From a virus, in UHGV virus genome UHGV-0344594: 62,256 bases of DNA; one strand, given 5' to 3'. A program made the position numbers and the translations under genes. Shown here piece by piece: positions 3,265 through 56,689 of the stretch (position 1 is its first letter; each line of letters begins with the position of its first letter). Below the pieces are notes generated by a model, which saw only the letters and a program-made list of their open reading frames with translations, searched no databases and was not told where the DNA came from.

Positions 3265-3281
3265 GTTGCTGAAACAGCAAC
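3265..3281. promoter_or_regulatory. GTTGC-N7-GCAAC palindrome (site 1, island, upstream of alpA)
   Basis: Exact GTTGCTGAAACAGCAAC. Confidence 0.5.
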
Positions 3282-3295
3282 AGGAGCGAATCAGG

Positions 3296-3502
3296 ATGAG
3301 CAAGAAAAGGTATCTCACGCAGGACGAAGTAGCAGACCGGTACCGGGGGCTTATCTCGGTGCGCACGCTGGCGAATTGGCGCTCGCTGCGCATCGGACCC
3401 AGGTTCACGAAGGTAGGAAAGACCGTTCTCTATGACGAAGCAGAGCTGGACGCGTGGGATGAACGTAATACCGTCAAATGCGCACCATCGGTGCGGGAGT
3501 GA
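3296..3502 (+). CDS. alpA: AlpA-family (prophage CP4-57-type) transcriptional regulator, 68 aa
   Basis: A ~68-aa MerR-like HTH protein (..RYLTQDEVADRYRGLISVRTLANWRS..YDEAELDAWDE) typical of Phage_AlpA. A GTTGC-N7-GCAAC palindrome lies 15 nt upstream. Confidence 0.6.
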   Translation: MSKKRYLTQDEVADRYRGLISVRTLANWRSLRIGPRFTKVGKTVLYDEAELDAWDERNTVKCAPSVRE

Positions 3503-3504
3503 GT

Positions 3505-3945
3505 ATGAAACGTGAAAATCGATATATCGTCATAAAGCGCAAAGATTTAGCCCCTAACGTTCCGCTGGATATGCTGGAGGAGTTCGAAGAGGTATTTTCG
3601 AAAGTATCCCCCCTGCTTCCAGCTCGCGAGTGCGTTGTCGTGGAAAGCGACTGGCCCGAATATGAGCACGTTTGGGAGCTTATCCGCCTTCGCGTCGAGA
3701 ATGCAGAAATCCCCGCCGAAACCGTTCAGGGCGTAGTGGATGCGCCAGCGGTCGATGCCGCGCTGCGTGCCTTCACTGACGACGCCACGAACGATAACGC
3801 GTTCTTCCTGGTCCGCGCCATCATGGAGGCATGCCTGCCGCGCGAGCCTAAAACCTTCGACAGCGTGAAAGAAGGCCTGGCGGCGACGAAAAGCGGTGAA
3901 ACCTTCAAAGTTGGGAAACCTACTTTCGGTCCGGGAGACCGTTAG
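3505..3945 (+). CDS. hypothetical protein (146 aa)
   Basis: ORF starting at an internal ATG (MKRENRYIV) that overlaps the alpA stop. Confidence 0.4.
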   Translation: MKRENRYIVIKRKDLAPNVPLDMLEEFEEVFSKVSPLLPARECVVVESDWPEYEHVWELIRLRVENAEIPAETVQGVVDAPAVDAALRAFTDDATNDNAFFLVRAIMEACLPREPKTFDSVKEGLAATKSGETFKVGKPTFGPGDR

Positions 3946-3953
3946 GGAGACTT

Positions 3954-4199
3954 GTGACCGATAAAATCAGAGCGTCCACCAGAGAGCGCATCGCCTACTG
4001 GCTTCTGCTACTGAAGCCCGGCCAGTGCATGGAGTTTTCCCCGGATGAATACGGGATCAGCCCTAAAACGCTGCTGGCCTATCTCGAAGCGATAAGCGAC
4101 GCCTCTATCGACCGCCGGTACAAGATGTGCAGCGCCGGGTTCCGCAAGATTGGCGTGCGCCGTCTGCGTGACTGGCCGTTTAGCGGCAAGGTGGCGTGA
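3954..4199 (+). CDS. hypothetical protein (81 aa)
   Basis: ORF only. Confidence 0.3.
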   Translation: MTDKIRASTRERIAYWLLLLKPGQCMEFSPDEYGISPKTLLAYLEAISDASIDRRYKMCSAGFRKIGVRRLRDWPFSGKVA

Positions 4200-4272
4200 T
4201 GGATGAGCTGGATGACAGCCTTCCGTATTTTTGTGACAACCGCTGCCCCGGTTGCCGGGGTGAGGATAAAAC

Positions 4273-4464
4273 GTGAACAGACTGAAGATGTGCATGGTGG
4301 CCGTGCTGGGACTGGTTGGCGCGCCGGTGAAGTGGACGCCGACGCCAGAGGTCCAAGCGCTGGCCGAACCTACCGGCGGCTATCCGGTCACTGATCGCCA
4401 TACCGGAAAGGCCAAAGAACGCCGTGAAGCAAAGCGCCGTCGCCGCGCTAAGGGGAGAAAGTGA
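4273..4464 (+). CDS. hypothetical small protein with N-terminal hydrophobic segment and basic tail
   Basis: ORF only. Sequence MCMVAVLGLVGAPV followed by an Arg/Lys-rich C-terminus. Confidence 0.25.
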   Translation: MNRLKMCMVAVLGLVGAPVKWTPTPEVQALAEPTGGYPVTDRHTGKAKERREAKRRRRAKGRK

Positions 4465-4727
4465 GCACTTCAAAACATCCAAAGCCGCATTTTGTGAAGT
4501 GCAATGGGAAGTGGCAGGCCTGCTACGGCAATCGGTCGAAGGGTAGCAAGTTCCGCTTCCAGATGGTCATGGCGGAGGATGAGAACCCATTAGCTGCTTA
4601 CATTAAATACCTTGATGCTCTGATGCAGGTGGAGGCATGGCAGGAAGCTGTAGGGGCTGGGAGGGGTGGAAAATCCATCCTTAGCGGCCTGCGCATAGCC
4701 TATCTACGGTTAAGGGGGAAAATGTGA
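4461..4727 (+). CDS. hypothetical protein (88 aa)
   Basis: ORF overlapping the previous stop. Confidence 0.3.
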   Translation: MSTSKHPKPHFVKCNGKWQACYGNRSKGSKFRFQMVMAEDENPLAAYIKYLDALMQVEAWQEAVGAGRGGKSILSGLRIAYLRLRGKM

Positions 4728-4812
4728 CAGCATTACAATGGGGGCTGATTATCGGTTTTACGATTGGCCTGACCGTAGCAAAAACCGCCGCGACGTTCGG
4801 CATGTTTTCAGG

Positions 4813-5067
4813 ATGGTGAGTATGAGTAAACGAGATATCAAAGCGAAACGCTGGGGTCGCAAATCAGCGAAGCGTCAGATGGCAGTCGAGCCGGTAATTG
4901 TTGACGGGTTTCCGAGAGGGCTGCAGCTACGTTTTCTGACGCAGTACCGGAAGTTTGGCGATGGAAGGGAGCAACTGCGCGACGGCGTTCCTGATTTTCG
5001 CGGTGGCTCAGCGGTGATGTGGGGGGATTGGTTCGATGTGCGAGGGGGTGAGCGTGTCCAGGGTTAA
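4813..5067 (+). CDS. hypothetical basic protein
   Basis: ORF 4738-5067. An internal Met (MVSMSKRD) is the likelier start. Confidence 0.25.
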   Translation: MVSMSKRDIKAKRWGRKSAKRQMAVEPVIVDGFPRGLQLRFLTQYRKFGDGREQLRDGVPDFRGGSAVMWGDWFDVRGGERVQG

Positions 5068-5440
5068 CGGGCGCAGGCCGCCCACGTTATCCCCTCTCCC
5101 GCAGCCGGTAGAGCCAAAGAAGATCGGCTGCGGAAAAAGCCTCGGTGGTTACATGGATCAGAGCGTGCCTGACAGATGCGGTGCGGTGGGCCTGGATGGA
5201 CTACATCTGTGCAGCGAGTGCTATCAAACCGTACAGGATATTGCAGGTGGTGAGCATGGTCACAGGTAGCGATCTGCTGGATATCCTCATCGCGATACCG
5301 GCGCTGATTTGCATCCGCCTGGCGTTGAAAGATATGTAGCGGTAATGCTGGTGGCGGTGAGTGACCGAACGGGAATGTGCGAGAGGTCAAAACGAAACCA
5401 GTACCAGTCCGCTACACCAGTTAGGCGGCATAACAGGCTA

Positions 5441-5542
5441 AAGGGTTTGAAAACAAAGAGGAATTTGAACCGGGTAAGCGTGGTTCACAATCACCCTACT
5501 GCCAGTTTTTAGTTCACGCTGGTTCACGCTCAAACCCTTTGA
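5441..5542. repeat. iteron-like region: three GTTCAC repeats bracketed by an 11-bp inverted repeat
   Basis: GTTCAC occurs at 5484-5489, 5512-5517 and 5523-5528. The last two are a tandem 10-bp unit GTTCACGCT(g/c). The inverted repeat is AAAGGGTTTGA (5441-5451) against TCAAACCCTTT (5531-5541). An A/T-rich tract with TTGACT follows. Confidence 0.5.
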
Positions 5543-5684
5543 TTACCGGACTTTTTTTAAGATATTGACTGGTAGCGGCTCCCGATCAATAAACGGGGTG
5601 CGTCGGGCAAACCGACACCAACTACAGCACCAGCTACCACCTACAAACAGCACCACCAAACCGCCTTCGGGCTAAGAGGAAAGG

Positions 5685-5888
5685 ATGGAAAAGTTACTCC
5701 ATATCGTGATGATTTTGGGCTTCATTTATGCCGCCTGGTCGGCCTTTGGATGGATCATGGGTTGCTGGCACTACACCAAAGCAACCACCTTCTTGGAGCA
5801 GGAAGCGCTGACGCACTACGGTACGATCTATCTGCGCCGGGCCGTTCTGAGCCTCGTTATCTCGCTGACAATCTATTTCGTGGCCTGA
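5685..5888 (+). CDS. small membrane protein (67 aa, 2 predicted TM)
   Basis: ORF with AAGAGGAAAGG RBS and two hydrophobic helices. Confidence 0.4.
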   Translation: MEKLLHIVMILGFIYAAWSAFGWIMGCWHYTKATTFLEQEALTHYGTIYLRRAVLSLVISLTIYFVA

Positions 5889-5914
5889 CGCCCGGCAGGG
5901 CTAATGAGGAAGGT

Positions 5915-6229
5915 ATGAGCAAAATTTCCCTGCCCAAGCTGCGCGAGATCTCGCAATCAGCGAAGGAAGTGATCGACGCCCTGGCGGACAAGAACGAGAA
6001 CGTCAGCCAGAACGACAGCGGCAAGATGGTGCAGCTTTACGACTATCTGAATGATGTCGCCGCGCCGCCCGCAGTGGTCAAGGCTATGGCGGACGAACTT
6101 ATCAACCTGCGAGAAATAAACCTGCGCCTACGTCAGCAGCAGATTGCTGATCGTCGTCGCTTTTGTAACCCCGCACCTGAGAGCCTTCTTCGCCTCATCA
6201 GGATCGATTCAGAAGATAACCAGCCATAA
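5915..6229 (+). CDS. hypothetical protein (104 aa)
   Basis: ATG at 5915 after AGGAAGGT. The longer track ORF overlaps the preceding gene. Confidence 0.4.
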   Translation: MSKISLPKLREISQSAKEVIDALADKNENVSQNDSGKMVQLYDYLNDVAAPPAVVKAMADELINLREINLRLRQQQIADRRRFCNPAPESLLRLIRIDSEDNQP

Positions 6230-6246
6230 ACGGCTAAGGAAAGGAA

Positions 6247-6726
6247 ATGAAAGTAACAGATCTCCCAGTTTGGCCGCATCGCCGCGTCTCATTTGTTCTT
6301 GACGATCCAGAACGTGGCGACAATCGGCTTAAAGAAGATGCAGAAATTGCGATGGCTGAGTATCTGGCGGGCCAGAAATGGCTGTCAGAAAACACCGATC
6401 CTTTTGCCATGGATGAAGATGAAACCGACCCTGAAAAAAGGGAACTCATTGAACGATACAGCGCAAATCCATTCGTCACGTCAGTGGGGATTACTGTCAC
6501 TGTGTCCAGCGGACCATTCGACTACAGACTTAACTTTGGGGAGGCTCTTCAGCTGCTGAAAGAAGGCCATAAGGTATATCGAGAAGATTGGGGAAATACT
6601 TCACATTGGCTCGAAATTGGCGATGACGGAAGGATCTGCCTTATGTCCGAAGAGCTACGCATACCCTCTTACAGCCCATCCCATGACGATATTTTCAGCG
6701 ATTTTTGGGCACTGAAAGACAACTAA
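6247..6726 (+). CDS. DUF2829-domain protein (Tad2-like fold)
   Basis: The C-terminal half carries the DUF2829 signature F.EAL.LLKEG.KV.RE.W....WL.I (FGEALQLLKEGHKVYREDWGNTSHWLEI). RBS AAGGAAAGGAAATG. Confidence 0.5.
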   Translation: MKVTDLPVWPHRRVSFVLDDPERGDNRLKEDAEIAMAEYLAGQKWLSENTDPFAMDEDETDPEKRELIERYSANPFVTSVGITVTVSSGPFDYRLNFGEALQLLKEGHKVYREDWGNTSHWLEIGDDGRICLMSEELRIPSYSPSHDDIFSDFWALKDN

Positions 6727-6739
6727 AGGAGACTACCCG

Positions 6740-8005
6740 ATGCCGAGCCTTACAGACGGACAAATCAAGAACGCGCTGAAGCGCGTAGCCAAAGCGCAGA
6801 AACCTGAAACGCTGGTGGACGGCGAAGGGCGCGGCACCGGGCGTCTCATTCTGGTTATCAAGCCCCAGCCGACCCGCGTAACGTCGGTCTTTTACGCGCA
6901 GCAGTGGCGCGACGGGAAGCGCAAACTGAAGAAGCTGGGAGAGTACCCGCACATGACCCTGGCGGATGCCCGCGAGGTATTCACCCGAGACTTTTCCGCC
7001 ACCATCAACAAAGGGGCATCGATCAAAGTCCAGGGCGACACCCGGCCCGGCACCGTGGGCGACCTGTTTGAAGGTTACGCGGACTGGCTACGGGACAGCG
7101 GCAAAATGAGCCATAAGGAAGCCCGGAAAGGCCTGAACAAGATAGCCGATGAGCTGGGCCGCAACCGCTTGGCGCGCGACATCGAGCCGGTTGACGTGCT
7201 GAACGTCCTGCGCCCCATCTATGAGCGCGGGAAGAAGGCTATGGCTGACCATGTGCGCAGCTACGTCAGAAGCGCCTACAGCTGGGGTATGAAGAGCGAG
7301 AACGACTATCGATCCACCAGCCCCCGGCGGTTCAACCTGGTGAGCAACCCGGCGGCGGGCATCCCCACCGAACCGAAGAAGCCCGGAGAGCGCTGGCTAC
7401 GCGAAGAGGAATGGGTGAAGATGTGGCGTTGGCTGCAGAATCCCGACTCTCTCACCCATGAATCCTATCCGCTGGCGATCATGCTGCTAATGCTCACCGG
7501 CCAGCGCGTGCAGGAGATTTGCACCCTGCACAAAGACCAGTACGACGCCGAAGAGGGCATTATCGACTGGCACAAAACCAAGAACGGCCGCCCCCACGCC
7601 ATCCCGCTGCCGTCGCTGGCGAAGGAGCTGCTGGACAGCATCACGCCGAATGAGCACGGCTGGTACTTCCCCGGACAAAAGGATCCGTCAACGTCTGTGC
7701 AGCACCAGACGCTCTATTCCTTCCTGTGGCGGCAGCGCGACCGTGGCGTTATTCCGCACGTCACGAACAGAGACATGCGGCGCACATTCAAGACGCTGGC
7801 AGGTAAAGCAGGTCTGACGCAGGAGATCCGCGACCGGCTGCAGAATCACGCCCGTTTCGACGTCAGCTCACGCCACTATGACCGGTACAGCTATATGGAT
7901 GAGAAGCGAGAGGCGATGGACATTTGGGATAAGTTTGTGCGGGACATGATCAGGGATAAGACACCGCCAAGACTGACGGTCATCGCTGGTACCGAAGCAG
8001 CATAA
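6740..8005 (+). CDS. int: tyrosine integrase, P4-type (DUF4102 N-terminal arm-binding domain)
   Basis: 421 aa. The N-terminus MPSLTDGQIKNA..DGEGRGTGRLIL..YAQQWRDGKRKL..YPHMTLADAREVF matches the P4-integrase arm-binding domain. The C-terminal catalytic region (..HDLRRTF..GH-like, RHYDRYSY) is typical of tyrosine recombinases. The gene sits next to a tRNA. Confidence 0.9.
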   Translation: MPSLTDGQIKNALKRVAKAQKPETLVDGEGRGTGRLILVIKPQPTRVTSVFYAQQWRDGKRKLKKLGEYPHMTLADAREVFTRDFSATINKGASIKVQGDTRPGTVGDLFEGYADWLRDSGKMSHKEARKGLNKIADELGRNRLARDIEPVDVLNVLRPIYERGKKAMADHVRSYVRSAYSWGMKSENDYRSTSPRRFNLVSNPAAGIPTEPKKPGERWLREEEWVKMWRWLQNPDSLTHESYPLAIMLLMLTGQRVQEICTLHKDQYDAEEGIIDWHKTKNGRPHAIPLPSLAKELLDSITPNEHGWYFPGQKDPSTSVQHQTLYSFLWRQRDRGVIPHVTNRDMRRTFKTLAGKAGLTQEIRDRLQNHARFDVSSRHYDRYSYMDEKREAMDIWDKFVRDMIRDKTPPRLTVIAGTEAA

Positions 8006-8008
8006 AAA

Positions 8009-8033
8009 AAGCCCCTTCGGGGGCTTTCTTTTT
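8009..8033. terminator. bidirectional rho-independent terminator
   Basis: AAAAAAAGCCCCTTCGGGGGCTTTCTTTTT: a GC stem flanked by an A-run and a T-run, sitting between the convergent int gene and the 8032-8307 gene. Confidence 0.7.
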
Positions 8034-8307
8034 AGATGAGGGCGCGAAGCTCTGCCTGCATATCACGAAGCTCGATAATTGCTCTTTCTTCTCTCGCAAG
8101 CTCTCTTTCTAAACGCTCAAGAATGCCGCATGGAAGCGGTGACAATTTTTCTTCATCAGCGGTAGTCGGTACCTCACCGCGAAGACGGATCAGCGCCTCA
8201 CGAATTCCGCCAATAATTTCATACAGGTCATCCGTCTGACGCTGTTTTACTTTCAACGCCGCTTCGAGTCTGGAGTTACTTTGAATTTCATAGTCGTTGA
8301 TAGCCAT
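8032..8307 (-). CDS. hypothetical coiled-coil protein (91 aa)
   Basis: ORF between int and the tRNA with RBS GAGGAAATACC. No motif recognised. Confidence 0.4.
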   Translation of the reverse strand: MAINDYEIQSNSRLEAALKVKQRQTDDLYEIIGGIREALIRLRGEVPTTADEEKLSPLPCGILERLERELAREERAIIELRDMQAELRALI

Positions 8308-8512
8308 AGGTATTTCCTCGGTTGGTTGTCGAGGTTATTTTCCTCACTCTGAGGATAAGTGTCTAACGAGGGATTTTTGCTGTAGCGATAAGCGAGACTT
8401 GTTGAAAAAGCGCCCCTGGCGGGTAGAACATTACCCTCTTCCTCCTGTGTGGTTGGTGGAAGACCCCGCCAGGGCGAATAGACCAATCAAACGATTGTTA
8501 TGGATACCGCGC

Positions 8513-8594
8513 CATAACGCAGGGCACCCTCCAGGCTGATTTAACGCCAAAACCTCGCAGATTAAGGGGTTCCTGAAAGATGCCCTGCGTTATG
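8513..8594. repeat. 14-bp inverted repeat abutting the tRNA 3' end (candidate att/core-binding structure)
   Basis: CATAACGCAGGGCA at 8513-8526 pairs with TGCCCTGCGTTATG at 8581-8594. The second arm ends one base before the tRNA CCA end. Confidence 0.4.
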
Positions 8595-8671
8595 TGGTGC
8601 GCCCTACAGGATTTGAACCTGTGGCCTACGGCTTAGAAGGCCGTTGCTCTATCCAGCTGAGCTAAGGGCGC
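8595..8671 (-). tRNA. argU: tRNA-Arg (anticodon TCT), argU-like
   Basis: The reverse complement folds as a 77-nt cloverleaf GCGCCCT..GCTCAGCTGGATAGAGC..ACGGCCTTCTAAGCCGT..CAGGTTCAAATCCTG..AGGGCGCACCA. It has a 7-bp acceptor stem, anticodon loop CTTCTAA and a CCA end. Confidence 0.9.
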
Positions 8672-9221
8672 ATTGTTGTAGCGGTGGTGCCTCCACCTGC
8701 CGGAACGGCCGGACCCGGCGGCGTCACACTATTAAGAACGCATTCATTTTTAACGTTGAATGGTTTGGCCTCGCCGCGTGCGCATAGCCGCAATTACCAC
8801 AACGGAAAGGGCACTACTGGGTCGTTCATTTACAGGTTGATGCTACCCAGACGTTAGCAGCAATGCCCTCACCTGTTGTGTGCCGGGATTCCACCGGCTC
8901 CCATCTGTTTTTTAAGTCGCTCAGATATCGTCTGGACTGCTGTCTATACCAGCTGCTACCGTCCTTTCCCGGCGTCATCGCGTATTCTGGAACGCGAAAC
9001 CGACCTGTTGTCCCCTGTCTGCTTCCAGGGCGTCACACCGTATCGCCACGATGGTGAATCGCTCGTTCGTGCCGGGTAAACACGCGGCTTGCACATTCCG
9101 GCTACCTGCTGCTGGGATGATGGATAAAGGCCCGCTCAGACCGCTAACGATACATGTGCCATGCAACGTACAACGGTGAAAATATAGCAGAGTAGAACGC
9201 GCGATTGCAAATTTAGAACAA

Positions 9222-9250
9222 AAAAAGGCCCGCTGGAACGGCGGGCATGG
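9222..9250 (-). terminator. rho-independent terminator downstream of the lysis cassette
   Basis: Minus strand reads GCCCGCCGTTCCAGCGGGC followed by TTTTTTTG. Confidence 0.6.
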
Positions 9251-26125: not shown

Positions 26126-26218
26126 GTTTGCCCCGTTGCCCTTTTAGCAACATGATAGACAAAAGGGCAACGCACGACCATTACCAAGTTTACGGATTCT
26201 GCGCTGCGAGTAACGATT

Positions 26219-40847: not shown

Positions 40848-41951
40848 TTATGCTGCGTTCGGGTCTTTCGCTGCGGTGTCGATTGCCACCACGCCGAAAT
40901 CGCGCTTGTTGAAACGGGTCTTGCTGATGCCGATGATGGTACCGGCGGCAACAGACGGCTCGTTGTCGTAGTCAGCCAGCTTCTCTTTCCAGGTGAAGTT
41001 CAGGCCTTTGGTGGTGCCGTAAGCAACCACACCAGCCTGGCGGCCCAGGAAGAGCGCGCGGGCGGCTTTGACGTTGGACGCTGCGCCGTAGTCGCTGAAT
41101 CGGATAACGTCGCGGTGCTTGTGCAGCACGATGTCATCGATCATACCCAGGCCACCTTTGAAGATGACGTTGGCTTTACCTTCAGCAGCGGCAGCAGCTT
41201 TCTGGATATCCAGCCAGCCCGCACCGGCTTCGGTACGCAGGTCAAACGCCTGGGTCGGGTTCATGACCATCACGTAGTGGTCGCTGCCGCCGATAGGGAT
41301 CGGGAGCAGGTTGGCGCTACGCGGGTCCAGAGCACGCATCATCGCTGCCTTATGGCTCGCCTTCTCGATCAGCAGGCGGCTCATCTTGTCGTCAGCGGTC
41401 AGGGTGGCTTTGCTGGTGGCGGAACCGCCGAACAGCAGGTGCTGGCCGTCCGGGGTGCGGATCGGGTTGCCTGCGTGTCCTGCGTAGTTGGCCGGGAACG
41501 ATTCATAGTTCTCGTTCATGCCGCGAGCGCCAGACAGGTAGATGAAGAACATCTGGTCGATGTACTGGCCCCACCATTCGGACAGGCGTTTTTTCGCAAC
41601 GTCACGCAGATCGTGAGCGGTACGCTTGCGGGTCATCTTGCCGCCGCAGGAAACGGACTTACGCAGCTGGTCAATGATGATTTCGTCGGAGAAGAACTTC
41701 AGCTGTTCTTCGTTGCCTTCCAGACGCTGGTCGCCGGAAACCGGGCCGCCGCGTAACTGGACGGAGAGATCGAAGCTAATGCGGTCGCCCACGTCAGCAT
41801 CGAGTTCGGTCTTGCGCTGGATTACTGCGTCATCACCTTTACCGATGAATTTTTCCCAGTAGCTCTTCCCCAGCGTTTCCGCGTAGAGACGCGCCGACCA
41901 TTTTTTCTGCGCCTGGACATCATTGCCCCAGGTGATAGTGGTTTGGCTCAT
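40848..41951 (-). CDS. major capsid protein (367 aa)
   Basis: Follows the scaffold gene, has a strong RBS (GAGGG) and is preceded by the conserved late leader element. Confidence 0.6.
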   Translation of the reverse strand: MSQTTITWGNDVQAQKKWSARLYAETLGKSYWEKFIGKGDDAVIQRKTELDADVGDRISFDLSVQLRGGPVSGDQRLEGNEEQLKFFSDEIIIDQLRKSVSCGGKMTRKRTAHDLRDVAKKRLSEWWGQYIDQMFFIYLSGARGMNENYESFPANYAGHAGNPIRTPDGQHLLFGGSATSKATLTADDKMSRLLIEKASHKAAMMRALDPRSANLLPIPIGGSDHYVMVMNPTQAFDLRTEAGAGWLDIQKAAAAAEGKANVIFKGGLGMIDDIVLHKHRDVIRFSDYGAASNVKAARALFLGRQAGVVAYGTTKGLNFTWKEKLADYDNEPSVAAGTIIGISKTRFNKRDFGVVAIDTAAKDPNAA

Positions 41952-41984: not shown

Positions 41985-42019
41985 TCGCCGCACGTCTTGC
42001 GCAGCATTACGTTTCGATT
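41985..42019 (-). promoter_or_regulatory. conserved 21-nt leader element (copy 2, upstream of major capsid)
   Basis: Identical TCGCCGCACGTCTTGCGCAGC plus GTTTCGATT, as at 11059-11099. Confidence 0.5.
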
Positions 42020-42049
42020 ATCGAATGACTGTTGCTGAAATGCAAACAC

Positions 42050-42259
42050 TCATGTCATGGCAATGGCTGTTTTGCTTGGAATGTCAACCTCCTGTTGCCC
42101 CTCTACAGCGCCGGGGCGCTTATCGCAGTGAATAATTACGCTTTCCGGCGCTTCGATTATAAAGCTGCACCGTTTACCGGCCTTCTTCACCATACGCACG
42201 GTTGCGTCGCCAATTTTCAGCACGTCGCCCTCGCGCAAATCGAATTTAAGTGCCCCCAC
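42050..42259 (-). CDS. CsrA-family RNA-binding protein homologue (69 aa)
   Basis: ..LREGDVLKIGDATVRMV..IEAPESVIIHCDKRP parallels CsrA ([33 protein letters not shown]). Confidence 0.5.
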   Translation of the reverse strand: MGALKFDLREGDVLKIGDATVRMVKKAGKRCSFIIEAPESVIIHCDKRPGAVEGQQEVDIPSKTAIAMT

Positions 42260-45974: not shown

Positions 45975-46005
45975 GATTGCCCTCTGTTGCGTTTATGTCT
46001 TATGC

Positions 46006-46022
46006 GTTGCCAGTATAGCAAC
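46006..46022. promoter_or_regulatory. GTTGC-N7-GCAAC palindrome (site 2, between terL and the 141-aa gene)
   Basis: Exact GTTGCCAGTATAGCAAC. Confidence 0.5.
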
Positions 46023-46027
46023 ACTTA

Positions 46028-47647: not shown

Positions 47648-47745
47648 CGCGCCCCCTCGAAAAGCATTGATGTGAAGATATTGCACAGAAAACCGCTATA
47701 ATGCGGTGAGGCATGTGCATTTATTTCACTTTGAGGATATCGAAT

Positions 47746-47964
47746 ATGGGCGGATTTGAACTGAAACTCTGGCGCAATGGCCTGGGCTGGTCCCAGGAAC
47801 GGGCAGCTGAAGAGCTGGGAGTGAGCAGACGGACTTACCTTACGTGGGAACAGAAAGGCACCTCCCGCGTGGTCGAACTTGCCACGCAGGCGCTGTCCAT
47901 CAAAGCCGAATGGCCTGAAACCGCCAAAAAGCTGAATAGGCTGTCCACTCTCGCGAAACACTAA
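47746..47964 (+). CDS. XRE-family helix-turn-helix protein (72 aa), antisense-inserted between terS and terL
   Basis: MGGFELKLWRNGLGWSQERAAEELGVSRRTYLTWEQ is a classical HTH_XRE. TATAAT at 47694-47699 and RBS GAGGATATCGAAT. The opposite-strand ORF 47644-47961 looks like noise. Confidence 0.55.
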   Translation: MGGFELKLWRNGLGWSQERAAEELGVSRRTYLTWEQKGTSRVVELATQALSIKAEWPETAKKLNRLSTLAKH

Positions 47965-48743: not shown

Positions 48744-48828
48744 AACGTGTCCTTGCGGGTTGACATATCCGCATGCATCGGGAATCGCTCCCGGATCGCT
48801 TTGTTGCGATTGTAGAAACAGGGGTTAC

Positions 48829-49098
48829 GAAATGCAAACACTCAAGCCGATAGATGGGCGGTGGCTTTACTGGCAGCAGGTGGACCTGGCAAACGGCGTT
48901 TTCCGCGTGCAGGGCGCTGAATGGCGCACGGAATGTCCAGACCTAACAGAATGGGTTGACTGGACCGGTTCGGCGCAGCTGGAAGAAGAGATCGGCCTGG
49001 CTCTCGAAATGCTGGGCGCATACATGTTTGGTAAATGGGTAGGATTCGGAAAGTCGATAGACGGCATCTGTCATGGTATAGCCTGGATGGTGGCCTGA
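48829..49098 (+). CDS. hypothetical protein (89 aa)
   Basis: + strand ORF from internal ATG (MQTLKPIDGRW). First gene of the convergent + block. Confidence 0.35.
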   Translation, partial: EMQTLKPIDGRWLYWQQVDLANGVFRVQGAEWRTECPDLTEWVDWTGSAQLEEEIGLALEMLGAYMFGKWVGFGKSIDGICHGIAWMVA

Positions 49099-49265
49099 TG
49101 CGTGATCACTATTGTCCGTGGATAGGCAATACTTGCTAAGCGCTTTGTTGCTCTATCGCACTATTTGATTGCATATTTACAATACTCTTCTGGCGTTACC
49201 GCTAACGCTATATTATGATTACCTTGTACCGCGCAATATGCGCCAATAACAACGAGGTAACACCC

Positions 49266-50602: not shown

Positions 50603-50820
50603 TTAAACCAAATCCAGGCGCGCTGCGGGCGCGGAACTACACCAAACGTCGCCAGGAGCAGGGCGACGTTAAAACCACCGTGTGGCTGAAAGGGAAGATA
50701 AACGCAGAGCTGCAGGCGCTGGCGAAGAAGGAAGGAGTTACCCGCGACGAGCTGATAGAGCGCATCTGTTCCGGGTACATAGAGTTTAAAACCAGACCAG
50801 TGACCCAACCCCACGAATAA
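50599..50820 (+). CDS. ribbon-helix-helix (Arc/CopG-like) protein (73 aa)
   Basis: ..TVWLKGKINAELQALAKKEGVTRDELIERI.. shows the beta-alpha-alpha pattern of RHH proteins. Confidence 0.4.
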   Translation: MIKPNPGALRARNYTKRRQEQGDVKTTVWLKGKINAELQALAKKEGVTRDELIERICSGYIEFKTRPVTQPHE

Positions 50821-50823
50821 ACA

Positions 50824-50858
50824 GCAGGAGCGCCCATAAGCGCTCCTGTTTCGTTTTA
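50824..50858 (+). terminator. rho-independent terminator (convergent junction)
   Basis: CAGGAGCGC-CCATAA-GCGCTCCTG followed by TTTCGTTTT. Confidence 0.7.
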
Positions 50859-51608
50859 TGGGGTGTCCTCCCGTTTTCTCTCTTCGTCCATAGCCAGCGC
50901 CTGGGCAACCACCTCATCGCGGTGCGCTTCAAACTTCTGCCGCGCCTCCTGGCGCTGCCTGGCCTGTTCTGCGTCGGCATCGACTTCCGCCTGGCGCATC
51001 GATTCACGCCAGGTTCGCATTAGCTCCGCCATGCGGGCGCGGTTGTCCTTCACCTGCTCCGGGCTTAGGTTCGGCAGCGCCAGCGCCTCCTCTTTGCGCG
51101 GAGGAGGCAAAAGCCCCCGGTTAACAGCCTGATCGACGGCGACGTCACGCAGTTGCTTATCCCATCCCTCGGAAACCTCGACGCTCGGAGCACCACCAGC
51201 TGCCTTTGCGATTGATACACTGCGGTCGTAGGCAGCGATGAAGGCCATGCGCGCCCCGATCTTGTCGCCCTCCTCCAGCAGCGGCAGCGCGATATTGAAA
51301 GCGTCCCGCGCCTCCCTCGTCCACACCACCGTGTTGCGCTCGTCAGCAGCTGGCAGCGCCAGTGACCAGGCCTCATTCGCGGATAGCCAGTCCCTGCCCG
51401 GTGACAACATGTCGATGATCGCCTTCAGCGTCAGCCTGCCGGTCGCCTCCTTCCGGACGCGGTTTAGTGCGGTCATCACTTCGTGGAAAGGGTATTCGTC
51501 CAGATCCTGCGCCATCACCAGCGCGGTGGTGGGCTTCATCTCACCCCCCATCACTTCGGCGGTCGCCACCAGCGTGCGCAGGACTTGTTCTTTCTCTTCG
51601 AGCGTCAT
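50856..51608 (-). CDS. putative replication protein (P-like helicase-loader position), 250 aa
   Basis: Immediately follows, and is coupled to, the O-like gene. There is no strong motif, so the function is assigned by position. Confidence 0.35.
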   Translation of the reverse strand: MTLEEKEQVLRTLVATAEVMGGEMKPTTALVMAQDLDEYPFHEVMTALNRVRKEATGRLTLKAIIDMLSPGRDWLSANEAWSLALPAADERNTVVWTREARDAFNIALPLLEEGDKIGARMAFIAAYDRSVSIAKAAGGAPSVEVSEGWDKQLRDVAVDQAVNRGLLPPPRKEEALALPNLSPEQVKDNRARMAELMRTWRESMRQAEVDADAEQARQRQEARQKFEAHRDEVVAQALAMDEERKREDTP

Positions 51609-52543
51609 TCTCTGCCCTCCCGCTCCCTCAGCATGCGGATAGCTTCATCGGCGGCGTTCGCGTTGGTCTGAGTGCTATCAATCTGGCGGGCGCGGCCCTG
51701 GGTCATTGCGCGGCCATTCATCCACTGCGTGCGGTAGCCCTCTGCGTTGAGCAGCAGGAAGTCGAGCGTATGGCTCGCCATAAGCACGCGCTGCTCGCTG
51801 ACGTTCTCGACGTAGAAACGGGCGACGCCAGGCGCTTCCCTGCCCAGCCGCTGGATGAGCTGCTTCACCTGCGCGTTGGTTTTCGCATTGCGCGGGATCG
51901 TCGTGTGATAGCGCTGCTCATAGGCTTTATCGAACCACTCCCAAAAGACAGTCCGGATCTTCTCGTAGCTGGGGCCGTTGTTCCTTTCGTCGTGCTGTTG
52001 CTGCTCCGACAACACTGCAGGCAAGCCAGCAGCGGCCGGGGGCGATTTTTCGCCGCCGGTAAGATTCTCTGAGGTAGTCTCTGTAGTAGTCTCTGTATGA
52101 AGATCGGGGCATTTTGCCCCGTTGGGTCGGGGCTTTTTGCCCTTAACGGCTGGGGCATTTTGCTCTGATGGGTTGGCGCAGTCTGCCCCATTCGATTGGT
52201 GCAAATTGCCCTGATCGGAGAGAAGCGCGTGCCGGTACTCAATTGTGTAAAAATTGGTGTGGTCGTGCTTCGATTTTCGCAGCTGCTTAACGTCCACCAG
52301 CCCCAGCTTTTTCAGCTTCGTCAGCGTCCGCTTGATGGTGTCCACGGACCAGAACGGGAAGTTATCGCGCTGCCATTCCTCGAACGTGTTGTAGACCCAT
52401 TTGCGGCCGTCGTGGACCTCGCCAGCGGTCGAGTCCTGGATCCAGTAGTTCAGTTGCTGCAGCACGATGGCTTCGTTCAGGCCGATACGGTCGGCCAGCT
52501 CCGCGTTAATGACGATGGGCTTGCGATTGAACAGGAGGCTCAT
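51605..52543 (-). CDS. replication initiator / replisome organiser (O-like), 312 aa
   Basis: The N-terminal region ..NFPFWSVDTIKRTLTKLKKLGLV.. resembles the phage replisome-organiser N-domain. Confidence 0.5.
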   Translation of the reverse strand: MSLLFNRKPIVINAELADRIGLNEAIVLQQLNYWIQDSTAGEVHDGRKWVYNTFEEWQRDNFPFWSVDTIKRTLTKLKKLGLVDVKQLRKSKHDHTNFYTIEYRHALLSDQGNLHQSNGADCANPSEQNAPAVKGKKPRPNGAKCPDLHTETTTETTSENLTGGEKSPPAAAGLPAVLSEQQQHDERNNGPSYEKIRTVFWEWFDKAYEQRYHTTIPRNAKTNAQVKQLIQRLGREAPGVARFYVENVSEQRVLMASHTLDFLLLNAEGYRTQWMNGRAMTQGRARQIDSTQTNANAADEAIRMLREREGRE

Positions 52544-52752
52544 TGCAGTGCCCCCCTGCGTGGATACATGACGAACTGCGCGCGGTAGTTGCGTGGGCCA
52601 GGTGCTGATGCTGTTGCCACGCGTAGGGAGGGGTTCTTACCGCTTGCGATAATGCGCATGATGGCCCGATATTCGCATGGGTTTTCCGCACGGATGTAGG
52701 CATATGGCCGAAGTCTGCCCGCCATGCGGTGACAAAAACGCCAGACTTTCAT
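52540..52752 (-). CDS. small basic protein (70 aa)
   Basis: ORF that exactly fills the gap with ATGA-type overlaps on both sides. Confidence 0.3.
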   Translation of the reverse strand: MKVWRFCHRMAGRLRPYAYIRAENPCEYRAIMRIIASGKNPSLRVATASAPGPRNYRAQFVMYPRRGALQ

Positions 52753-53189
52753 AGGCGCACCTCCGACAAGTTCAACTCAGGGATCAGCGCCTCGTTGCGA
52801 CCGGCGGCCACAACGCCGTAACCAGTCTCGAAGAAGCTCAGGCGGCCTTTCAACGGCTGGAACGGCAGCGGCTTCGATCCGGAAAGCTGGAAGCCTACCG
52901 GGCCAAAGAACCAGGGCGACGCGCTTTCGCGTGTGGTGCCGGTGATGTGCGTATAGCCGACGATCCCGCCGCGCTCTAACTTATCAAACGCTGGCAGGAC
53001 TATGCGCTGCAGCGGTGGCAGGCTGTCGCAGATAGCTTTTGCTGCGTCATAGTCGGCGCGTGTCATTCCCTTGCTGGCGTGGATCAGCACCGCGCCCCGA
53101 TACTTCGTGTCCCAGCTCCGGTTCTCGATGTCCTTAAAGCCGTTGACGATTAGCCAGGCCCACGGCTGCCTTATTGAAATTGCCTTCAT
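52749..53189 (-). CDS. ASCH-domain protein
   Basis: MKAISIRQPWAWLIVNGFKDIENRSW.. is the ASCH/EVE-like signature. Confidence 0.6.
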   Translation of the reverse strand: MKAISIRQPWAWLIVNGFKDIENRSWDTKYRGAVLIHASKGMTRADYDAAKAICDSLPPLQRIVLPAFDKLERGGIVGYTHITGTTRESASPWFFGPVGFQLSGSKPLPFQPLKGRLSFFETGYGVVAAGRNEALIPELNLSEVRL

Positions 53190-53235
53190 GCTTTTGCCTT
53201 AGCCGCTCTACGGCGGCGATCCATTGCTGTTTTGA

Positions 53236-53982
53236 TTATTCAGTTGCTGAAATGGCAACACTCTTCCCGCACTTAGGGCAGAACTTCACTCCGTTCTCTT
53301 CCGGGCCGCCGTCAGGGAAAATCCATTCAACGCCGCATGTGCCAGACCAGTGGTCATCGTAATTGCTGAATGTCCAGGTGCAGCTGTCCGGAATAATTTC
53401 AGGAATATTTTGTGGTGCATTTTGGGGTTGATTAGCGGCCAGTTGGCGGATGATAGCGGCGTCTGCAAAATTACCGATATGCTCCAGAGTGTTGGCGACA
53501 AGCTCAATTCCATCCGGAACTACCGGCGCTGGCTGCTGGGATATAGCGGTATAGCAGTCCTCGCACAGACCATCGACCGAATACCCGTAGATAGGCTTAT
53601 TGCAGTTTCTGTCTTTGCAGCGGCGTCGTTCATGTTTCTGAAGAGCGTTGTCCAGCGTGATGAAGTCAACGCTGGGATGCGCCATGCGGGCATCTATCGC
53701 TGCGTCAAACTCATTCGTGTCAAGTTCAACAAGGTCATCCCAGCTCGCCAGACCTGGCTCACCGTCATCGCCAAAAGCGTCTCTTTCTCGCAAAAAACGG
53801 TAGCGCTGGGCATCTCGCTCAATGTTTGCCGTGAGCGCCACCGGCTCGCTGTCCATTGCGGCCACCAGCAGGCGCAGCGCTTCCAGATAAAACTGCTCTT
53901 TAAGCGATAGCTCGCCAGCCGATTCCAGCGCCGCGATACGCTCTTTCACTGCTTCTGGTGTGATTTTAGTAGTCATCGCCAA
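53236..53982 (-). CDS. hypothetical protein with C-terminal Cys cluster (248 aa)
   Basis: ORF with a ..CPKCGK.. zinc-ribbon-like end. Confidence 0.4.
   Translation of the reverse strand: MAMTTKITPEAVKERIAALESAGELSLKEQFYLEALRLLVAAMDSEPVALTANIERDAQRYRFLRERDAFGDDGEPGLASWDDLVELDTNEFDAAIDARMAHPSVDFITLDNALQKHERRRCKDRNCNKPIYGYSVDGLCEDCYTAISQQPAPVVPDGIELVANTLEHIGNFADAAIIRQLAANQPQNAPQNIPEIIPDSCTWTFSNYDDHWSGTCGVEWIFPDGGPEENGVKFCPKCGKSVAISATE
53243..53259. promoter_or_regulatory. GTTGC-N7-GCAAC palindrome (site 3, upstream of ASCH gene)
   Basis: Exact GTTGCTGAAATGGCAAC. A near copy, GTTGCTGAAATGCAAAC, lies at 42031-42047. Confidence 0.5.
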
Positions 53983-54286
53983 TCGCCTTATTCAGAACTT
54001 CCAGAATGCACTTTGTGCTCATCTTGCCGCCTTCGCGATAGGTATACTCCGTGAGTTCACGGCGAGCCTCTTTGAGCGTTTCAATGCTGACATGACCAAA
54101 GAGCGTTTTTTGCTCATCGTCACAGTCGGCCATCGCAAAACCAGCAACGAAGCCGATTAGCAGAGTGATTGCAGTTATTCCGCCGAAAAGCGGCGTCCCC
54201 CAGTCCGCCCCGCTGGCGGCGCTGATGAAAGCCCCAGTCGCGCACACCGGGATGAACACCTTGAAAAACGCGATGGTTTTCTTCAT
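53966..54286 (-). CDS. small membrane protein (106 aa)
   Basis: N-terminal TM segment. Confidence 0.35.
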   Translation of the reverse strand: MKKTIAFFKVFIPVCATGAFISAASGADWGTPLFGGITAITLLIGFVAGFAMADCDDEQKTLFGHVSIETLKEARRELTEYTYREGGKMSTKCILEVLNKAIGDDY

Positions 54287-54438
54287 GGCTTCACCTGATT
54301 AATAAGCTCGATAACCTTCATGGTCAGGATGGCACCAGGGACCCAGGCACCCAGCACGCAGACCACAATCGCGATAACCAGAGAGCGCCACATACGTGCG
54401 TTTTCTGCTTTAAATTGCTCGATTTCGTTGTTCATCAT
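54283..54438 (-). CDS. small membrane peptide (~51 aa)
   Basis: Sub-threshold ORF MMNNEIEQFKAENARMWRSLVIAIVVCVLGAW.. with coupled overlaps. Confidence 0.3.
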   Translation of the reverse strand: MMNNEIEQFKAENARMWRSLVIAIVVCVLGAWVPGAILTMKVIELINQVKP

Positions 54439-54767
54439 GCCTCCCGTTTGAGGGGGTTGTTGTCGTTGATGGCAAAGGCCTCGTAGTCTTCGCGGCCTGT
54501 TTTTATGTGCTCAAGATTGCCGCGCCGGTTGGTGCCAAACTCACCTTTCGGCAGGAACACGCGCGGGAATTGACCGTGCCATTTTCCGCCGTAGGGGGTT
54601 GGATCCCCGTCGCAAAGGTGCGTAGGTCCGCATGCCGAACACAGCAGCATTCCTTCGCGTTCCGGTGCGTATGACCAGTCAAACTCCTCTTTCATCGGCC
54701 GGAAACCCTGGAATGAAAGAGCAGTGTTCTCACAGCAACCGCAGTTGTCGCACTGGAACAGACTCAT
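54435..54767 (-). CDS. Cys-rich (zinc-binding?) protein (110 aa)
   Basis: CDNCGCCEN..CSACGP..C. Confidence 0.4.
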   Translation of the reverse strand: MSLFQCDNCGCCENTALSFQGFRPMKEEFDWSYAPEREGMLLCSACGPTHLCDGDPTPYGGKWHGQFPRVFLPKGEFGTNRRGNLEHIKTGREDYEAFAINDNNPLKREA

Positions 54768-54991
54768 GAAGCCTCCCTGTCGGTCGATTGGCTTTCTCTC
54801 TGCTCGCGGGTGATAAAGACGTTGCAGAGGTTGATTGTGCTGCGCTCGGCAGCGCGCGCGATGATTTCGTTCACCACTTCCGACTGTGTGGCCGGTTCCA
54901 GCCCCATCGCCTGGCGCTGCTCATTCACGGCGGAAATGAACTGCCAGAGCGCGATACGGTTGTGGAGGGTGATGGAGCAGTTAATCCTCAT
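54764..54991 (-). CDS. hypothetical protein (~75 aa)
   Basis: Internal ATG (MRINCSITLH..) overlapping the upstream stop. The longer track version runs into the neighbouring gene. Confidence 0.3.
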   Translation of the reverse strand: MRINCSITLHNRIALWQFISAVNEQRQAMGLEPATQSEVVNEIIARAAERSTINLCNVFITREQRESQSTDREAS

Positions 54992-55334
54992 CGGCTTCGC
55001 CCTCCTCTTCCGGGCGGCGCTCTTCCTCGATGTACACCAGCGAGTGGTCGTAAAGCTCTTCCAGGGGGAAGCCGCGCAGGGTCTTTGTGTCCGGCATGCC
55101 ATACGGGCGCTTCAGCTTGTAGCCGTGCTTTTTGATGACGTCGCCCACCAGCACCGGGCCGCCCTGCTCCACCAGCCACTGGTGAATGTCACGGGCCTGC
55201 TGGCTCAGATCCAGCGGGTAGGTACCCACGGCAACGGCTACGACGTGTTTGCCGACCTGAATGACCTTCACACCGCCAGGCTCATGATTCAGGGCTGGCT
55301 TGAACGTCGAAAGGTAGTTTGGTTGCATGAACAT
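54981..55334 (-). CDS. hypothetical protein (117 aa)
   Basis: ORF preceded by a GTTGC-N7-GCAAC palindrome. Confidence 0.4.
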   Translation of the reverse strand: MFMQPNYLSTFKPALNHEPGGVKVIQVGKHVVAVAVGTYPLDLSQQARDIHQWLVEQGGPVLVGDVIKKHGYKLKRPYGMPDTKTLRGFPLEELYDHSLVYIEEERRPEEEGEADED

Positions 55335-55380
55335 TCCCTATCGCCATATGGCGAATCGTAATTGCTAATCTGCACTGTGC

Positions 55381-55397
55381 GTTGCCAAAACAGCAAC
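55381..55397. promoter_or_regulatory. GTTGC-N7-GCAAC palindrome (site 4)
   Basis: Exact GTTGCCAAAACAGCAAC, flanked GCGTTGCC..GCAACGGTGCGC. Confidence 0.5.
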
Positions 55398-55404
55398 GGT
55401 GCGC

Positions 55405-56640
55405 CTAAATTTTTTGTTTGAAAATCACCTGGCCGTCATCGATAACGGGTGCATCGCACAGGCCGTAAGCGCTCGAACACCCAGCTGGGGCTGGCAACAG
55501 CTTCATCATGTCGAAAACCCGGCCGCCGCGTGCGGTCTTCGACCACTTAACGACTTCATGCACATTCAGCTTTTCCATCGCTTCCTGGTTGGTCAGTCCA
55601 TCGATATCGACCGGCATGACGCCGGGACCAAAGAAGCTGGCTCCCTGCCGTTTGCTCGCCTGGCTTACCAGCCGTTCCCACTCCGCGATGCGTTCGATCT
55701 CTTCCGGGAAGCGGGAGGCAATCTCATGCAGCTCGTCTTTGCGGCAGTTGATGCAGGGTGCGCAGCCGACGCGGGACATCCCCATTTCATAAAGCGGGTT
55801 CCACTTCACGCCGTGTTTGCGGTGGAAGTCGAAAACGTCCTGCGCCGTCCAGTTGAGGATCGGACGGTAGTTGAAAAGCCCCTGGCCGACTTCCTCAATC
55901 TCTTTGTATTTTGCGCGCACGGCTGACTCATCGGCGCGGATGCCCTGCCAGCTGTAAAGCTCCTCCGTGTCCGGATCCTCCAGCAGCGGCATAAACACCT
56001 GCTCAAATACCGGATTGCGCTTCAGCTCTTCGGTGCAGAACTGCGCTTTGCGGCTGGGGAAACGGCCTTTCCAGATACACAGGTCGAGAAATGGGTTCCC
56101 AGTTGGATGGAGAACGCCGAGTGCGGTTTCGATAATGATTCCTGATTGGTGCTCCGCCTCATCCTTACTCATGCCCTTGACGGCTGGAAGCCAAAGAAAA
56201 GGGCCAGCTTCGGCGTTGCCGTAAATATCAGAAGGTTCTGGTGGAATGTCAGGGAACTCAATTTCACGCCCATCAGGGCAACGCAAAAAAGAGACAACCC
56301 CATCATCAGTAGGCATCGTTATCTTCGCATAGGCTGGGTTTAAAACCCACTGACCAGCGGTATCAGCCATAAAGTCGGCTACCAGCTTTGTCGGCCACTT
56401 GGTTTCGACATAGGCGCGCTTACCGGCGATCTGGCGGTCGAAGTTTGCCCGGATGCGTCGAATGGCAATGCCCAGCTTGTTTTCCAGGTAGTCGAGATAA
56501 TCGTAAACCTGCGGCAGCTCGTTGCCGGTATCAGCGAACACCAGAAGGATATTCTCTGCCTGGCGCTCAATCGCCAGCAGTGCCGTTGCGGTGCTGTCTT
56601 TCCCGGCGCTGGTGCTGACTACGTTGTAAGTTTTCTTCAT
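55405..56640 (-). CDS. PAPS-reductase/PP-loop ATP-pyrophosphatase family protein with C-terminal Cys cluster
   Basis: ATG 56640 (MKKTYNVVSTSAGKDSTA is the SGGKDS P-loop). CAPCINC near the C-terminus. Confidence 0.65.
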   Translation of the reverse strand: MKKTYNVVSTSAGKDSTATALLAIERQAENILLVFADTGNELPQVYDYLDYLENKLGIAIRRIRANFDRQIAGKRAYVETKWPTKLVADFMADTAGQWVLNPAYAKITMPTDDGVVSFLRCPDGREIEFPDIPPEPSDIYGNAEAGPFLWLPAVKGMSKDEAEHQSGIIIETALGVLHPTGNPFLDLCIWKGRFPSRKAQFCTEELKRNPVFEQVFMPLLEDPDTEELYSWQGIRADESAVRAKYKEIEEVGQGLFNYRPILNWTAQDVFDFHRKHGVKWNPLYEMGMSRVGCAPCINCRKDELHEIASRFPEEIERIAEWERLVSQASKRQGASFFGPGVMPVDIDGLTNQEAMEKLNVHEVVKWSKTARGGRVFDMMKLLPAPAGCSSAYGLCDAPVIDDGQVIFKQKI

Positions 56641-56672
56641 CCGCTTCGCTCTGTTGTGGTTCCGTAAGGTGC

Positions 56673-56689
56673 GTTGCCGCCACGGCAAC
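56673..56689. promoter_or_regulatory. GTTGC-N7-GCAAC palindrome (site 5, upstream of PAPS-reductase-like gene)
   Basis: Exact GTTGCCGCCACGGCAAC. Confidence 0.5.

Follow-up and report, generated by a model that had tools for sequence, protein, structure and literature searches.

The stretch of DNA analysed here (the window) is the whole of the 62,256-nt UHGV virus genome UHGV-0344594, which carries dispersed copies of a 17-bp palindrome, GTTGC-N7-GCAAC, ahead of genes that range from a CI/Cro-type immunity switch to the late operon, the capsid and lysis genes, and an AlpA/excisionase-like gene (alpA). The window is ~94% identical to the Klebsiella phages SopranoGao, ZX1, LASTA, and SJM3 (genus Lastavirus). 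Positions 1-8016 are collinear with SopranoGao 54793-61611 (gp63 to integrase, gp63-gp77) with aligned blocks 83-98% identical, positions 61604-61993 match SopranoGao 54358-54747, and an uninterrupted open reading frame (ORF; MSYWKFTSAESLTAWDEM...) crosses the junction 62256/1 from the end of the window into its start. Judged from this collinearity and from the ORF that spans the two ends, the window amounts to a single Lastavirus genome, complete and circularly permuted, and the P4-like island that the original prediction had placed beside a prophage is by the same comparison the integrase arm (1-8005) of that phage. The alpA gene, whose product matches HTH_17 and a PHROG excisionase family, is a further operon of this phage and shares the operator with the others.

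The strict palindrome has six exact copies in the window (at 3265, 26135, 46006, 53243, 55381, and 56673) against an expectation of 0.09 from dinucleotide-preserving shuffles, none of which (0/100) reached six, and an unbiased enumeration that covered every 5-mer dyad with a spacer of 0-16 ranked GTTGC-N7 first in the window by enrichment (6 vs. 0.088). All five exact copies that had been claimed beforehand are confirmed, though the sixth, at 26135-26151, had been overlooked; the near copy proposed at 42031 (GTTGCTGAAATGCAAAC) also stands, having two mismatches to the strict pattern yet matching the family consensus GTTKS-N7-SMAAC. The relaxed consensus has eight matches in the window, where ~1.2 would be expected, and the bare frame GTT-N11-AAC occurs only 14 times in the whole window, with 10 of the 14 being motif-like. 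Sites absent from the earlier list include those at 48803 (upstream of terS), 11111-11127 (lysis leader), and 58454 (after cI), as well as 57737 and two more sites in the cI/cro gap. Unrelated DNA does not carry the motif at a similar density, as the controls (F116, Bcep22, and a Klebsiella plasmid) have 0-1 relaxed matches per 50 kb, and compared to these controls the palindrome is real and specific. The placement of the copies in short intergenic gaps directly upstream of starts, as described previously, is borne out, with the upstream stop codon 7 nt before the palindrome in two cases and the ribosome-binding site of the next gene following immediately in several.

Each palindrome is part of a 37-bp module composed of two 17-bp operators, A and B, offset by 20 bp, and eleven such modules (CI/Cro switch included; Table 1) occur around the genome between 3.2 and 58.5 kb, all co-oriented with the downstream gene and 11-59 nt from its start. 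Read toward that gene, the module has GTTKS at positions 1-5, SMAAC at 13-17, GTTKS at 21-25, and SMAAC at 33-37. The left half-site of operator A (positions 1-17), GTTGC or GTTTGC, doubles as a -35-like hexamer (TTGCnn/TTTGCA), while the spacer of operator B (positions 21-37) holds a -10-like hexamer (positions 26-31) 18 bases after the -35-like element, and the right half-site of B ends just before the predicted transcription start. In most modules operator A is perfect and B is reduced to its right half; in those of terS, GNAT, and alpA, B is perfect and A is reduced to its left half, a layout because of which the alpA copy first looked inverted. In a set of 29 modules from four phages, similarity to TATAAT shows a single peak, at position 26 of the module (mean match, 3.48; ~1.5 at other offsets), with the clearest promoter-like cases being terS (TTTGCA-18-TACAAT, found by a promoter scan as a sigma-70-like promoter), the major capsid gene (TTTGCA-18-GATAAT), the post-cI module (TTGCTG-18-TAATAT), and the lysis cassette (TTGTGG-18-TAAAAT). 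A weight matrix trained only on the 19 modules of Serratia phage Parlo, Pseudomonas phage Itty13, and Erwinia phage PEp14 scores the modules of the window at 14-44 bits, compared to a shuffle maximum of 12.6, and the gene-oriented strand outscores the mirror strand at all ten modules.

Table 1. Operator sites, 37-bp modules, candidate regulator genes, and further module-like matches in the window; scores are from the matrix trained on Parlo, Itty13, and PEp14.
Feature	Coordinates	Strand	Score (bits)	Details
cI/cro switch, three family sites	57737..57806	-		read from the sequence; 57737 is a 1-mismatch match
Switch site (a)	57806->57790	-		GTTGCTAAATTGCAATC
Switch middle site	57785->57769	-		GTTTGCTTTTGGCATTA; alternative register CATTATTTTTTGCCAAC at 57773->57757
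Switch site (c)	57753->57737	-		GTTGCTATGAAGACAAC; 13 nt before cro ATG
Post-cI module	58454..58490	+	22.3	GTTGC tgttctc AAATA tat TGTTC TAATATa GCAAC
PAPS-reductase-like gene module	56653..56689	-	18.0	gene ATG 56640; A exact 56673-56689; weak -10 CGGAAC; ortholog Parlo 10016
117-aa gene module	55361..55397	-	14.4	A exact 55381-55397; also a mosaic junction; ortholog Parlo 11054
ASCH gene module	53223..53259	-	22.9	gene ATG 53189; A exact 53243-53259
terS (late operon) module	48803..48839	-	44.2 (top score)	GTTTG catttcg TAACC cct GTTTC TACAATc GCAAC
terL/141-aa gene module	45986..46022	-	36.4	gene ATG 45974; A exact 46006-46022; orthologs PEp14 4244, Itty13 31148
Capsid module	42011..42047	-	41.2	CsrA-like/capsid gap; GTTTG catttca GCAAC agt CATTC GATAATc GAAAC
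GNAT acetyltransferase gene module	26135..26171	-	30.8	true gene ATG 26123; B exact 26135-26151; -10 TAAAAG
Lysis-cassette module	11091..11127	-	34.5	GTTGT ggttatg GCAAT ggt CAGTC TAAAATc GAAAC
AlpA/excisionase-like gene module	3245..3281	+	22.0 (mirror strand 18.2)	gene ATG 3296, co-oriented; B exact 3265-3281; GTTTC gcccttg TTAAT agc GTTGC tgaaaca GCAAC
CI-like repressor gene, 198 aa	57853..58449	+		ATG 57853, ribosome-binding site GGGAGG; Pfam HTH_31/HTH_26; PHROG transcriptional regulator/repressor families
Cro-like gene, 94 aa, divergent from cI	57439..57723	-		ATG 57723; Pfam RsaL-like HTH_92 at 3e-11
Possible weak extra module	49147..49183		19.6 (shuffle maximum 12.6)	orientation ambiguous
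Motif-like copy in giant DarB-like gene	19804..19840	-		in frame, peptide SVAETA; probably a coding coincidence

The terS module is located in the divergent gap between terS and a cluster of small + strand genes, and the lysis module lies directly behind a strong intrinsic terminator (11143-11166, 10-bp stem) and ahead of the endolysin gene (ATG 11040). The same terminator-then-module order recurs in PEp14 at 41861, with TATAAT, and because the terminator is directly upstream in both genomes the lysis genes need a promoter exactly at the module. The 141-aa gene behind terL belongs to phrog_10057, a PHROG family annotated as DNA methyltransferase. A possible weak extra module (49147-49183) sits between the small + strand genes of the 48.8-50.8 kb cluster.

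Between the CI-like and Cro-like genes, the three family sites are in helical phase, with start-to-start spacings of 21 and 32 bp, and a further module follows cI; read from the sequence, the arrangement is that of an immunity switch whose operator sets are OR- and OL-like. The post-cI module is a predicted PL-like promoter for an operon that would run through alpA to int. All eight phages found to have a CI homologue show two to three family sites in the cI/cro gap and a module right after the cI stop, and the post-cI modules of the eight relatives have TATAAT, TAGAAT, TAATAT, or TATCAT as the -10 hexamer.

The module set is shared well beyond the Lastavirus. The TerL proteins of Parlo, Itty13, and PEp14 share 58-64% identity with that of the window, the genome layout is the same, and separate dyad searches of Parlo (TGTTT-N9-AAACA, 4 vs. 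0.036) and Itty13 (GTTT-N9-AAAC, 6 vs. 0.10) each returned the same family; the sites in PEp14 were found by pattern search. Orthologous sites with the half-site GTTKS occur in these phages before cro, the PAPS reductase gene, terS, the methyltransferase-like gene, the capsid gene, the GNAT gene, the lysis genes, and alpA, as well as after cI. Further, the details of single modules are retained. The operator-B 17-mer of the terS module (GTTTCTACAATCGCAAC) is identical in Parlo and PEp14 (Itty13, GTTTTTACAATCGAAAC) and TACAAT is at the -10 position of the terS module in all four phages; GATAAT holds the same module position ahead of the capsid gene in Parlo, PEp14, and Itty13; the B-perfect layout of the GNAT module is kept in all three; and the layout of the alpA module recurs at Parlo 3543 and Itty13 56165. 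A scan of the IMG/VR collection with the terS operator gave 66 matches, most of them chance, among which 10 loci belong to the family and have the two-operator terS module.

Based on the switch layout, the CI-like repressor is the most likely binder of the operator and the Cro-like protein probably binds the same sites. The helix-turn-helix (HTH) of CI is 41-46% identical across four genera, and a residue of its predicted recognition helix covaries with operator base 4, with G4/C14 half-sites making up 27 of 42 in phages whose CI reads 'LSRT/LSRS' compared to 7 of 56 in 'LSLT' phages. F116, which has structural genes in common with this phage and a different CI, does not have the motif. A PDB sequence search with CI gave weak HTH matches only, to ClgR and lambda repressor, and the single-sequence AlphaFold model (pLDDT 36) is too poor for the fold to be judged.

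Additional evidence on the role of CI comes from LASTA and SJM3, which are reported to be strictly virulent (PMC10052179). Both carry a clean 449-bp deletion corresponding to window 57862-58310 (LASTA 14069/14070), with the loss of CI residues ~4-152, and retain only a 90-aa fragment of a truncated integrase. Because these virulent phages carry its deletion, the CI-like gene can be assigned as the lysogeny repressor, and by sequence LASTA and SJM3 derive from a temperate phage by deletion, just as D29 relates to L5. The cI deletion explains their virulence, and it predicts that cells with a related prophage, or expressing its CI, should be immune to both. LASTA keeps every motif site despite the deletion, which is recent (flanks ~95-97% identical).

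From the motif, its enrichment, geometry, orientation, and conservation, and its link to cI/cro, we infer what binds the sites, that binding represses, and that the modules are used as promoters. The reading we favour, at a probability of about 0.65, is that the palindrome would be the operator of the phage's own CI/Cro immunity switch, dispersed over about eleven promoters of one genome. CI dimers, and Cro during lytic growth, would occupy operator A over the -35 and operator B over the -10/+1 and thereby occlude RNA polymerase at modules that would head the early-right, early-left, xis/int, late (terS), capsid, and lysis units along with several accessory-gene units. In the lysogen, repressor on all of the modules would block polymerase at each promoter and silence the whole prophage directly, perhaps also blocking read-through, and the loss of repressor would open all of them. 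The modules with a weak -10 (PAPS, ASCH, 117-aa gene, and alpA) may act mainly as roadblocks or as very weak promoters.

A number of observations weigh against this reading. The -10 is poor at four modules (PAPS, CGGAAC; ASCH, CAAAAC; alpA, TGAAAC; and the 117-aa gene), which may thus be operators without promoters, and the leaders that the predicted starts imply are very short (11-14 nt) and have the Shine-Dalgarno at the extreme 5' end. No S24 peptidase domain was detected in CI, for which Pfam at E <= 0.01 gives the N-terminal HTH only. The covariation between CI and operator is drawn from only ~3 vs. 5 lineages. Cro varies in parallel, having an additional Arg in the two phages with a preference for G at operator base 4, and for this reason the roles of CI and Cro are not separable by covariation. 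It is also unusual for an immunity operator to be kept across phages of four host genera, since immunity regions normally diverge, and Bcep22, which has a CI homologue, shows only degenerate versions of the motif. Finally, there would be no obvious delay of the late genes if CI alone controlled every promoter.

Some of these same points are better accommodated by the alternative that fares best, though it is unlikely, namely that the sites are bound by another lytic regulator, a timer or activator that turns early genes off and late genes on, like phi29 p4. Candidates include the Cro-like protein alone, the conserved antisense XRE protein (47713-47964), and a small regulator from the 48.8-50.8 kb cluster. 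LASTA is lytic without CI and has all of the sites, and therefore the modules need no CI for lytic expression; the weak -10 hexamers, together with spacers of 18 bp, resemble those of activator-dependent promoters; the extra Arg of Cro parallels the operator; and conservation of the operator across genera suits a core regulator better than an immunity determinant. Against such a regulator, the palindrome lies over the -35 and most of the spacer, centred near -29, and the second operator extends from -10 to +1, positions that indicate the geometry of a repressor and not that of a class I/II or MerR-type activator. Sites are also present at both early promoters flanking cI, and the recent date of the cI deletion in LASTA means that the retention of sites there says little. 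As for the XRE protein, its gene (+ strand) lies between terS and terL, with matches to HTH_3 (1.7e-6) and phrog_6962 (1e-34), and the annotations of SopranoGao, LASTA, and ZX1 have a transcriptional regulator ORF at this position and that of PEp14 a hypothetical protein, while the annotators of Parlo chose the sense ORF.

It is improbable that no regulator is involved and that the modules are a family of host-polymerase promoters, or recombination linkers, copied along with gene cassettes, with an incidental dyad. The left half-site does coincide with a -35-like TTGCnn, and one module at least coincides exactly with a mosaic junction of three phages, but the right half-sites (13-17 and 33-37) have no sigma-70 role and yet drive the enrichment that the unbiased dyad searches returned in three genomes, three sites cluster in the switch region, and the half-site covaries with the repressor helix. 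At the mosaic junction (window 55381-55397, SopranoGao 47777-47793, ZX1 11282-11298), the palindrome and its downstream side are common to the three phages, and from the first base after the palindrome the other side consists of unrelated cassettes, namely a PAPS reductase (window), regulator genes (SopranoGao), and an anti-repressor (ZX1).

Other promoter readings of the module were considered and set aside. Antisense promoters on the + strand like the lambda CII-dependent pRE/paQ type are disfavoured, as the -10 signal and the weight matrix favour the gene-oriented strand everywhere. The late promoter of P1 Lpa type has its dyad at -22, whereas the dyad here covers -37 to -21 and early promoters have sites too, and the spacing is wrong for a sigma-54 reading of TGGCA...TTGC. 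The initial view of a 'third half-site' as an alternative RNA pairing partner was replaced by the two-operator model after the mirror layout was seen at terS and alpA.

It is very unlikely that the palindromes act as RNA or single-stranded DNA hairpins in polycistronic transcripts, either as processing sites, as translational operators by the Shine-Dalgarno, or as attenuators. The exact copies in the window do fold at -4.8 to -15.2 kcal/mol, z is < -2.5 in four of the eight sites folded (seven of the eight being exact copies), and many sites lie directly 5' of ribosome-binding sites. Predicted energies as a whole range from -0.1 to -15.2 kcal/mol, however, with the terS site unable to fold (-0.1 kcal/mol); a T-run is absent; the position relative to the ribosome-binding site differs between the alpA copy and the others; and sites occur in the non-transcribed divergent cI/cro and terS gaps. 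An Rfam gathering scan of the whole window returned the tRNA only, with no match to a hairpin or c4-type RNA. Among 32 orthologous sites, the outer GTT/AAC is invariant (32/32) because the sites were selected on GTT-N11-AAC, and the inner pairs 4:14, 5:13, and 6:12 are complementary in 22, 22, and 15 sites, respectively. Pairs 4:14 and 5:13 are each non-complementary in 10 of the 32 (about one-third), positions 6/12 and 7/11 are symmetric in composition and uncorrelated within single sites, and the centre is A/T-rich. Across relatives the stem sequence is conserved and compensatory covariation is absent, a pattern that fits half-site recognition by a protein dimer and not base pairing. The free spacer and the broken inner pairs thus bear out the preference for a dimeric DNA-binding protein over an RNA hairpin expressed in the original prediction.

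A separate sequence element is present in two of the leaders. An exact 15-mer (GCGCAAGACGTGCGG; - strand) occurs 8-14 nt after the module in the capsid leader (41988-42002) and the lysis leader (11062-11076) and is kept in Parlo, Itty13, and PEp14 (PEp14 form, GCGCATGACGTGC). The capsid leader has a strong stem beside the Shine-Dalgarno (-25.4 kcal/mol, z = -3.1) and the CsrA-like gene (42050-42259) is just upstream; the 15-mer could be an mRNA-stability or CsrA-related feature.

The idea that a P4-like satellite beside the prophage senses its helper's regulator through a helper operator ahead of alpA, to which the copy 14 nt before the AlpA-like gene and the integrase and tRNA-Arg downstream of it had lent some appeal, can be dismissed. 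SopranoGao is collinear with window 1-8016, an intact ORF joins the two ends of the window, and the virion genomes of SopranoGao and ZX1 both contain the alpA site with its flanks unchanged. The alpA-int arm is likewise present in Parlo, Itty13, and PEp14, tRNA-Arg is annotated in LASTA, and ZX1 is reported to carry one tRNA (PMC9505181). The region is not a separate element with its own ends and is not absent from virion genomes but belongs to the phage itself, and with no separate island the proposed satellite-helper cross-talk also falls, removing a false lead on satellite-helper communication. The tRNA-Arg(TCT) (8595-8671, - strand) is phage-borne, with the integrase on one side and the lysis genes on the other, and probably contributes to attP. 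Near the tRNA, 138 bp (8863-9000) share 97% identity with DNA that carries no annotation in two pigeon E. coli genomes.

Other dyads and motif-like copies were rejected as operators. All four copies of a CGCAT-N5-ATGCG dyad in the window and every copy of a GTTCG-N6-CGAAC dyad in Itty13 are coding, and the TCGGA-N6-TCCGA dyad of F116 forms clustered replication iterons and is not dispersed; six tandem copies lie within 170 bp just after cro (F116 19481-19650), resemble replication-origin iterons, and are unrelated to the palindrome. Copies internal to DarB-like genes are in frame and encode VAETA-type peptides, as V-A-x-x-A-T corresponds to GTT GCN NNN NNN GCA ACN, with the peptides VAETA, VAKTET, and VAKPAT yielding the same DNA pattern in the DarB-like gene of Parlo (52605) and PEp14 (30250 and 37102).

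A generalization of the CI/Cro operator reading to the wider group is put forward only tentatively and may well prove too strong. Under it, the temperate podophages of a widespread family, comprising Lastavirus, Parlovirus, Ittyvirus, Pavtokvirus, and related contigs, would place all of their transcription units, terminase, capsid, and lysis included, on the single CI/Cro operator by means of a portable 37-bp cassette, with no dedicated late activator or antiterminator, and the cassettes would serve as junctions for the exchange of gene modules. A full-text literature search for the half-sites together with repressor and phage returned nothing relevant and no description of the motif. The paper on LASTA reports only a different PHIRE consensus (PMC10052179), and the ZX1 genome paper mentions no promoter or operator of this kind (PMC9505181). 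The modules would constitute a first regulatory map for Lastavirus-type Klebsiella phages, which are under characterisation for therapy. If CI does bind as predicted, direct genome-wide control by a single repressor, best known from P1 and mycobacteriophage L5, would extend to CI/Cro-type phages of Gram-negative hosts.

The OR and OL regions of lambda consist of 17-bp pseudo-palindromic operators that overlap PR, PRM, and PL. As in lambda, the window has divergent HTH repressor and cro genes with two to three adjacent 17-bp dyad operators of free spacer between them that overlap -35/-10 elements, a second operator set at the predicted early-left promoter, and adjacent operators spaced for cooperative pairs of dimers. 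Unlike lambda, this phage employs the operator at some eight additional places, the late, capsid, and lysis promoters among them, and has cI on the strand of the early-left operon. In addition, CI is without a detected C-terminal LexA/S24 self-cleavage domain, and no Q- or N-type antitermination signals were seen in this phage.

In P1 (C1) and N15 (CB), one immunity repressor controls many operons through scattered operator copies, each overlapping a promoter; the operators of P1 are asymmetric 17-bp sites bound by a monomer, and immunity in both P1 and N15 also uses a c4 antisense RNA and an antirepressor. The original prediction of a dispersed-operator regulon like those of P1 C1 and N15 CB is apt as an analogy, in that many operator copies, those of the cI/cro switch included, are dispersed at the promoters of separate operons, while the defining features of the P1 and N15 systems were not found. 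The site here is a dyad, the Pfam and PHROG matches of CI include lambda-repressor-like HTH families only and none with C1 homology, and no c4-type RNA family was detected by Rfam in the whole window.

The stoperators of L5 and other cluster A phages, numbering >20, are asymmetric 13-mers bound by a monomer with two DNA-binding domains that stop elongation, and they occur in promoters and in the short intergenic gaps of long operons, co-oriented with transcription; the virulent relative D29 is a repressor-deletion derivative that keeps its sites (PMC9283540). The Lastavirus sites likewise lie in short intergenic gaps, oriented with transcription, and are kept in the virulent deletion relatives LASTA and SJM3, but they form about 11 modules of paired 17-bp dyads, mostly at promoter-like hexamers. 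By analogy with these three systems, the phage would operate a lambda-type CI/Cro switch extended genome-wide in the manner of P1 C1 and L5.

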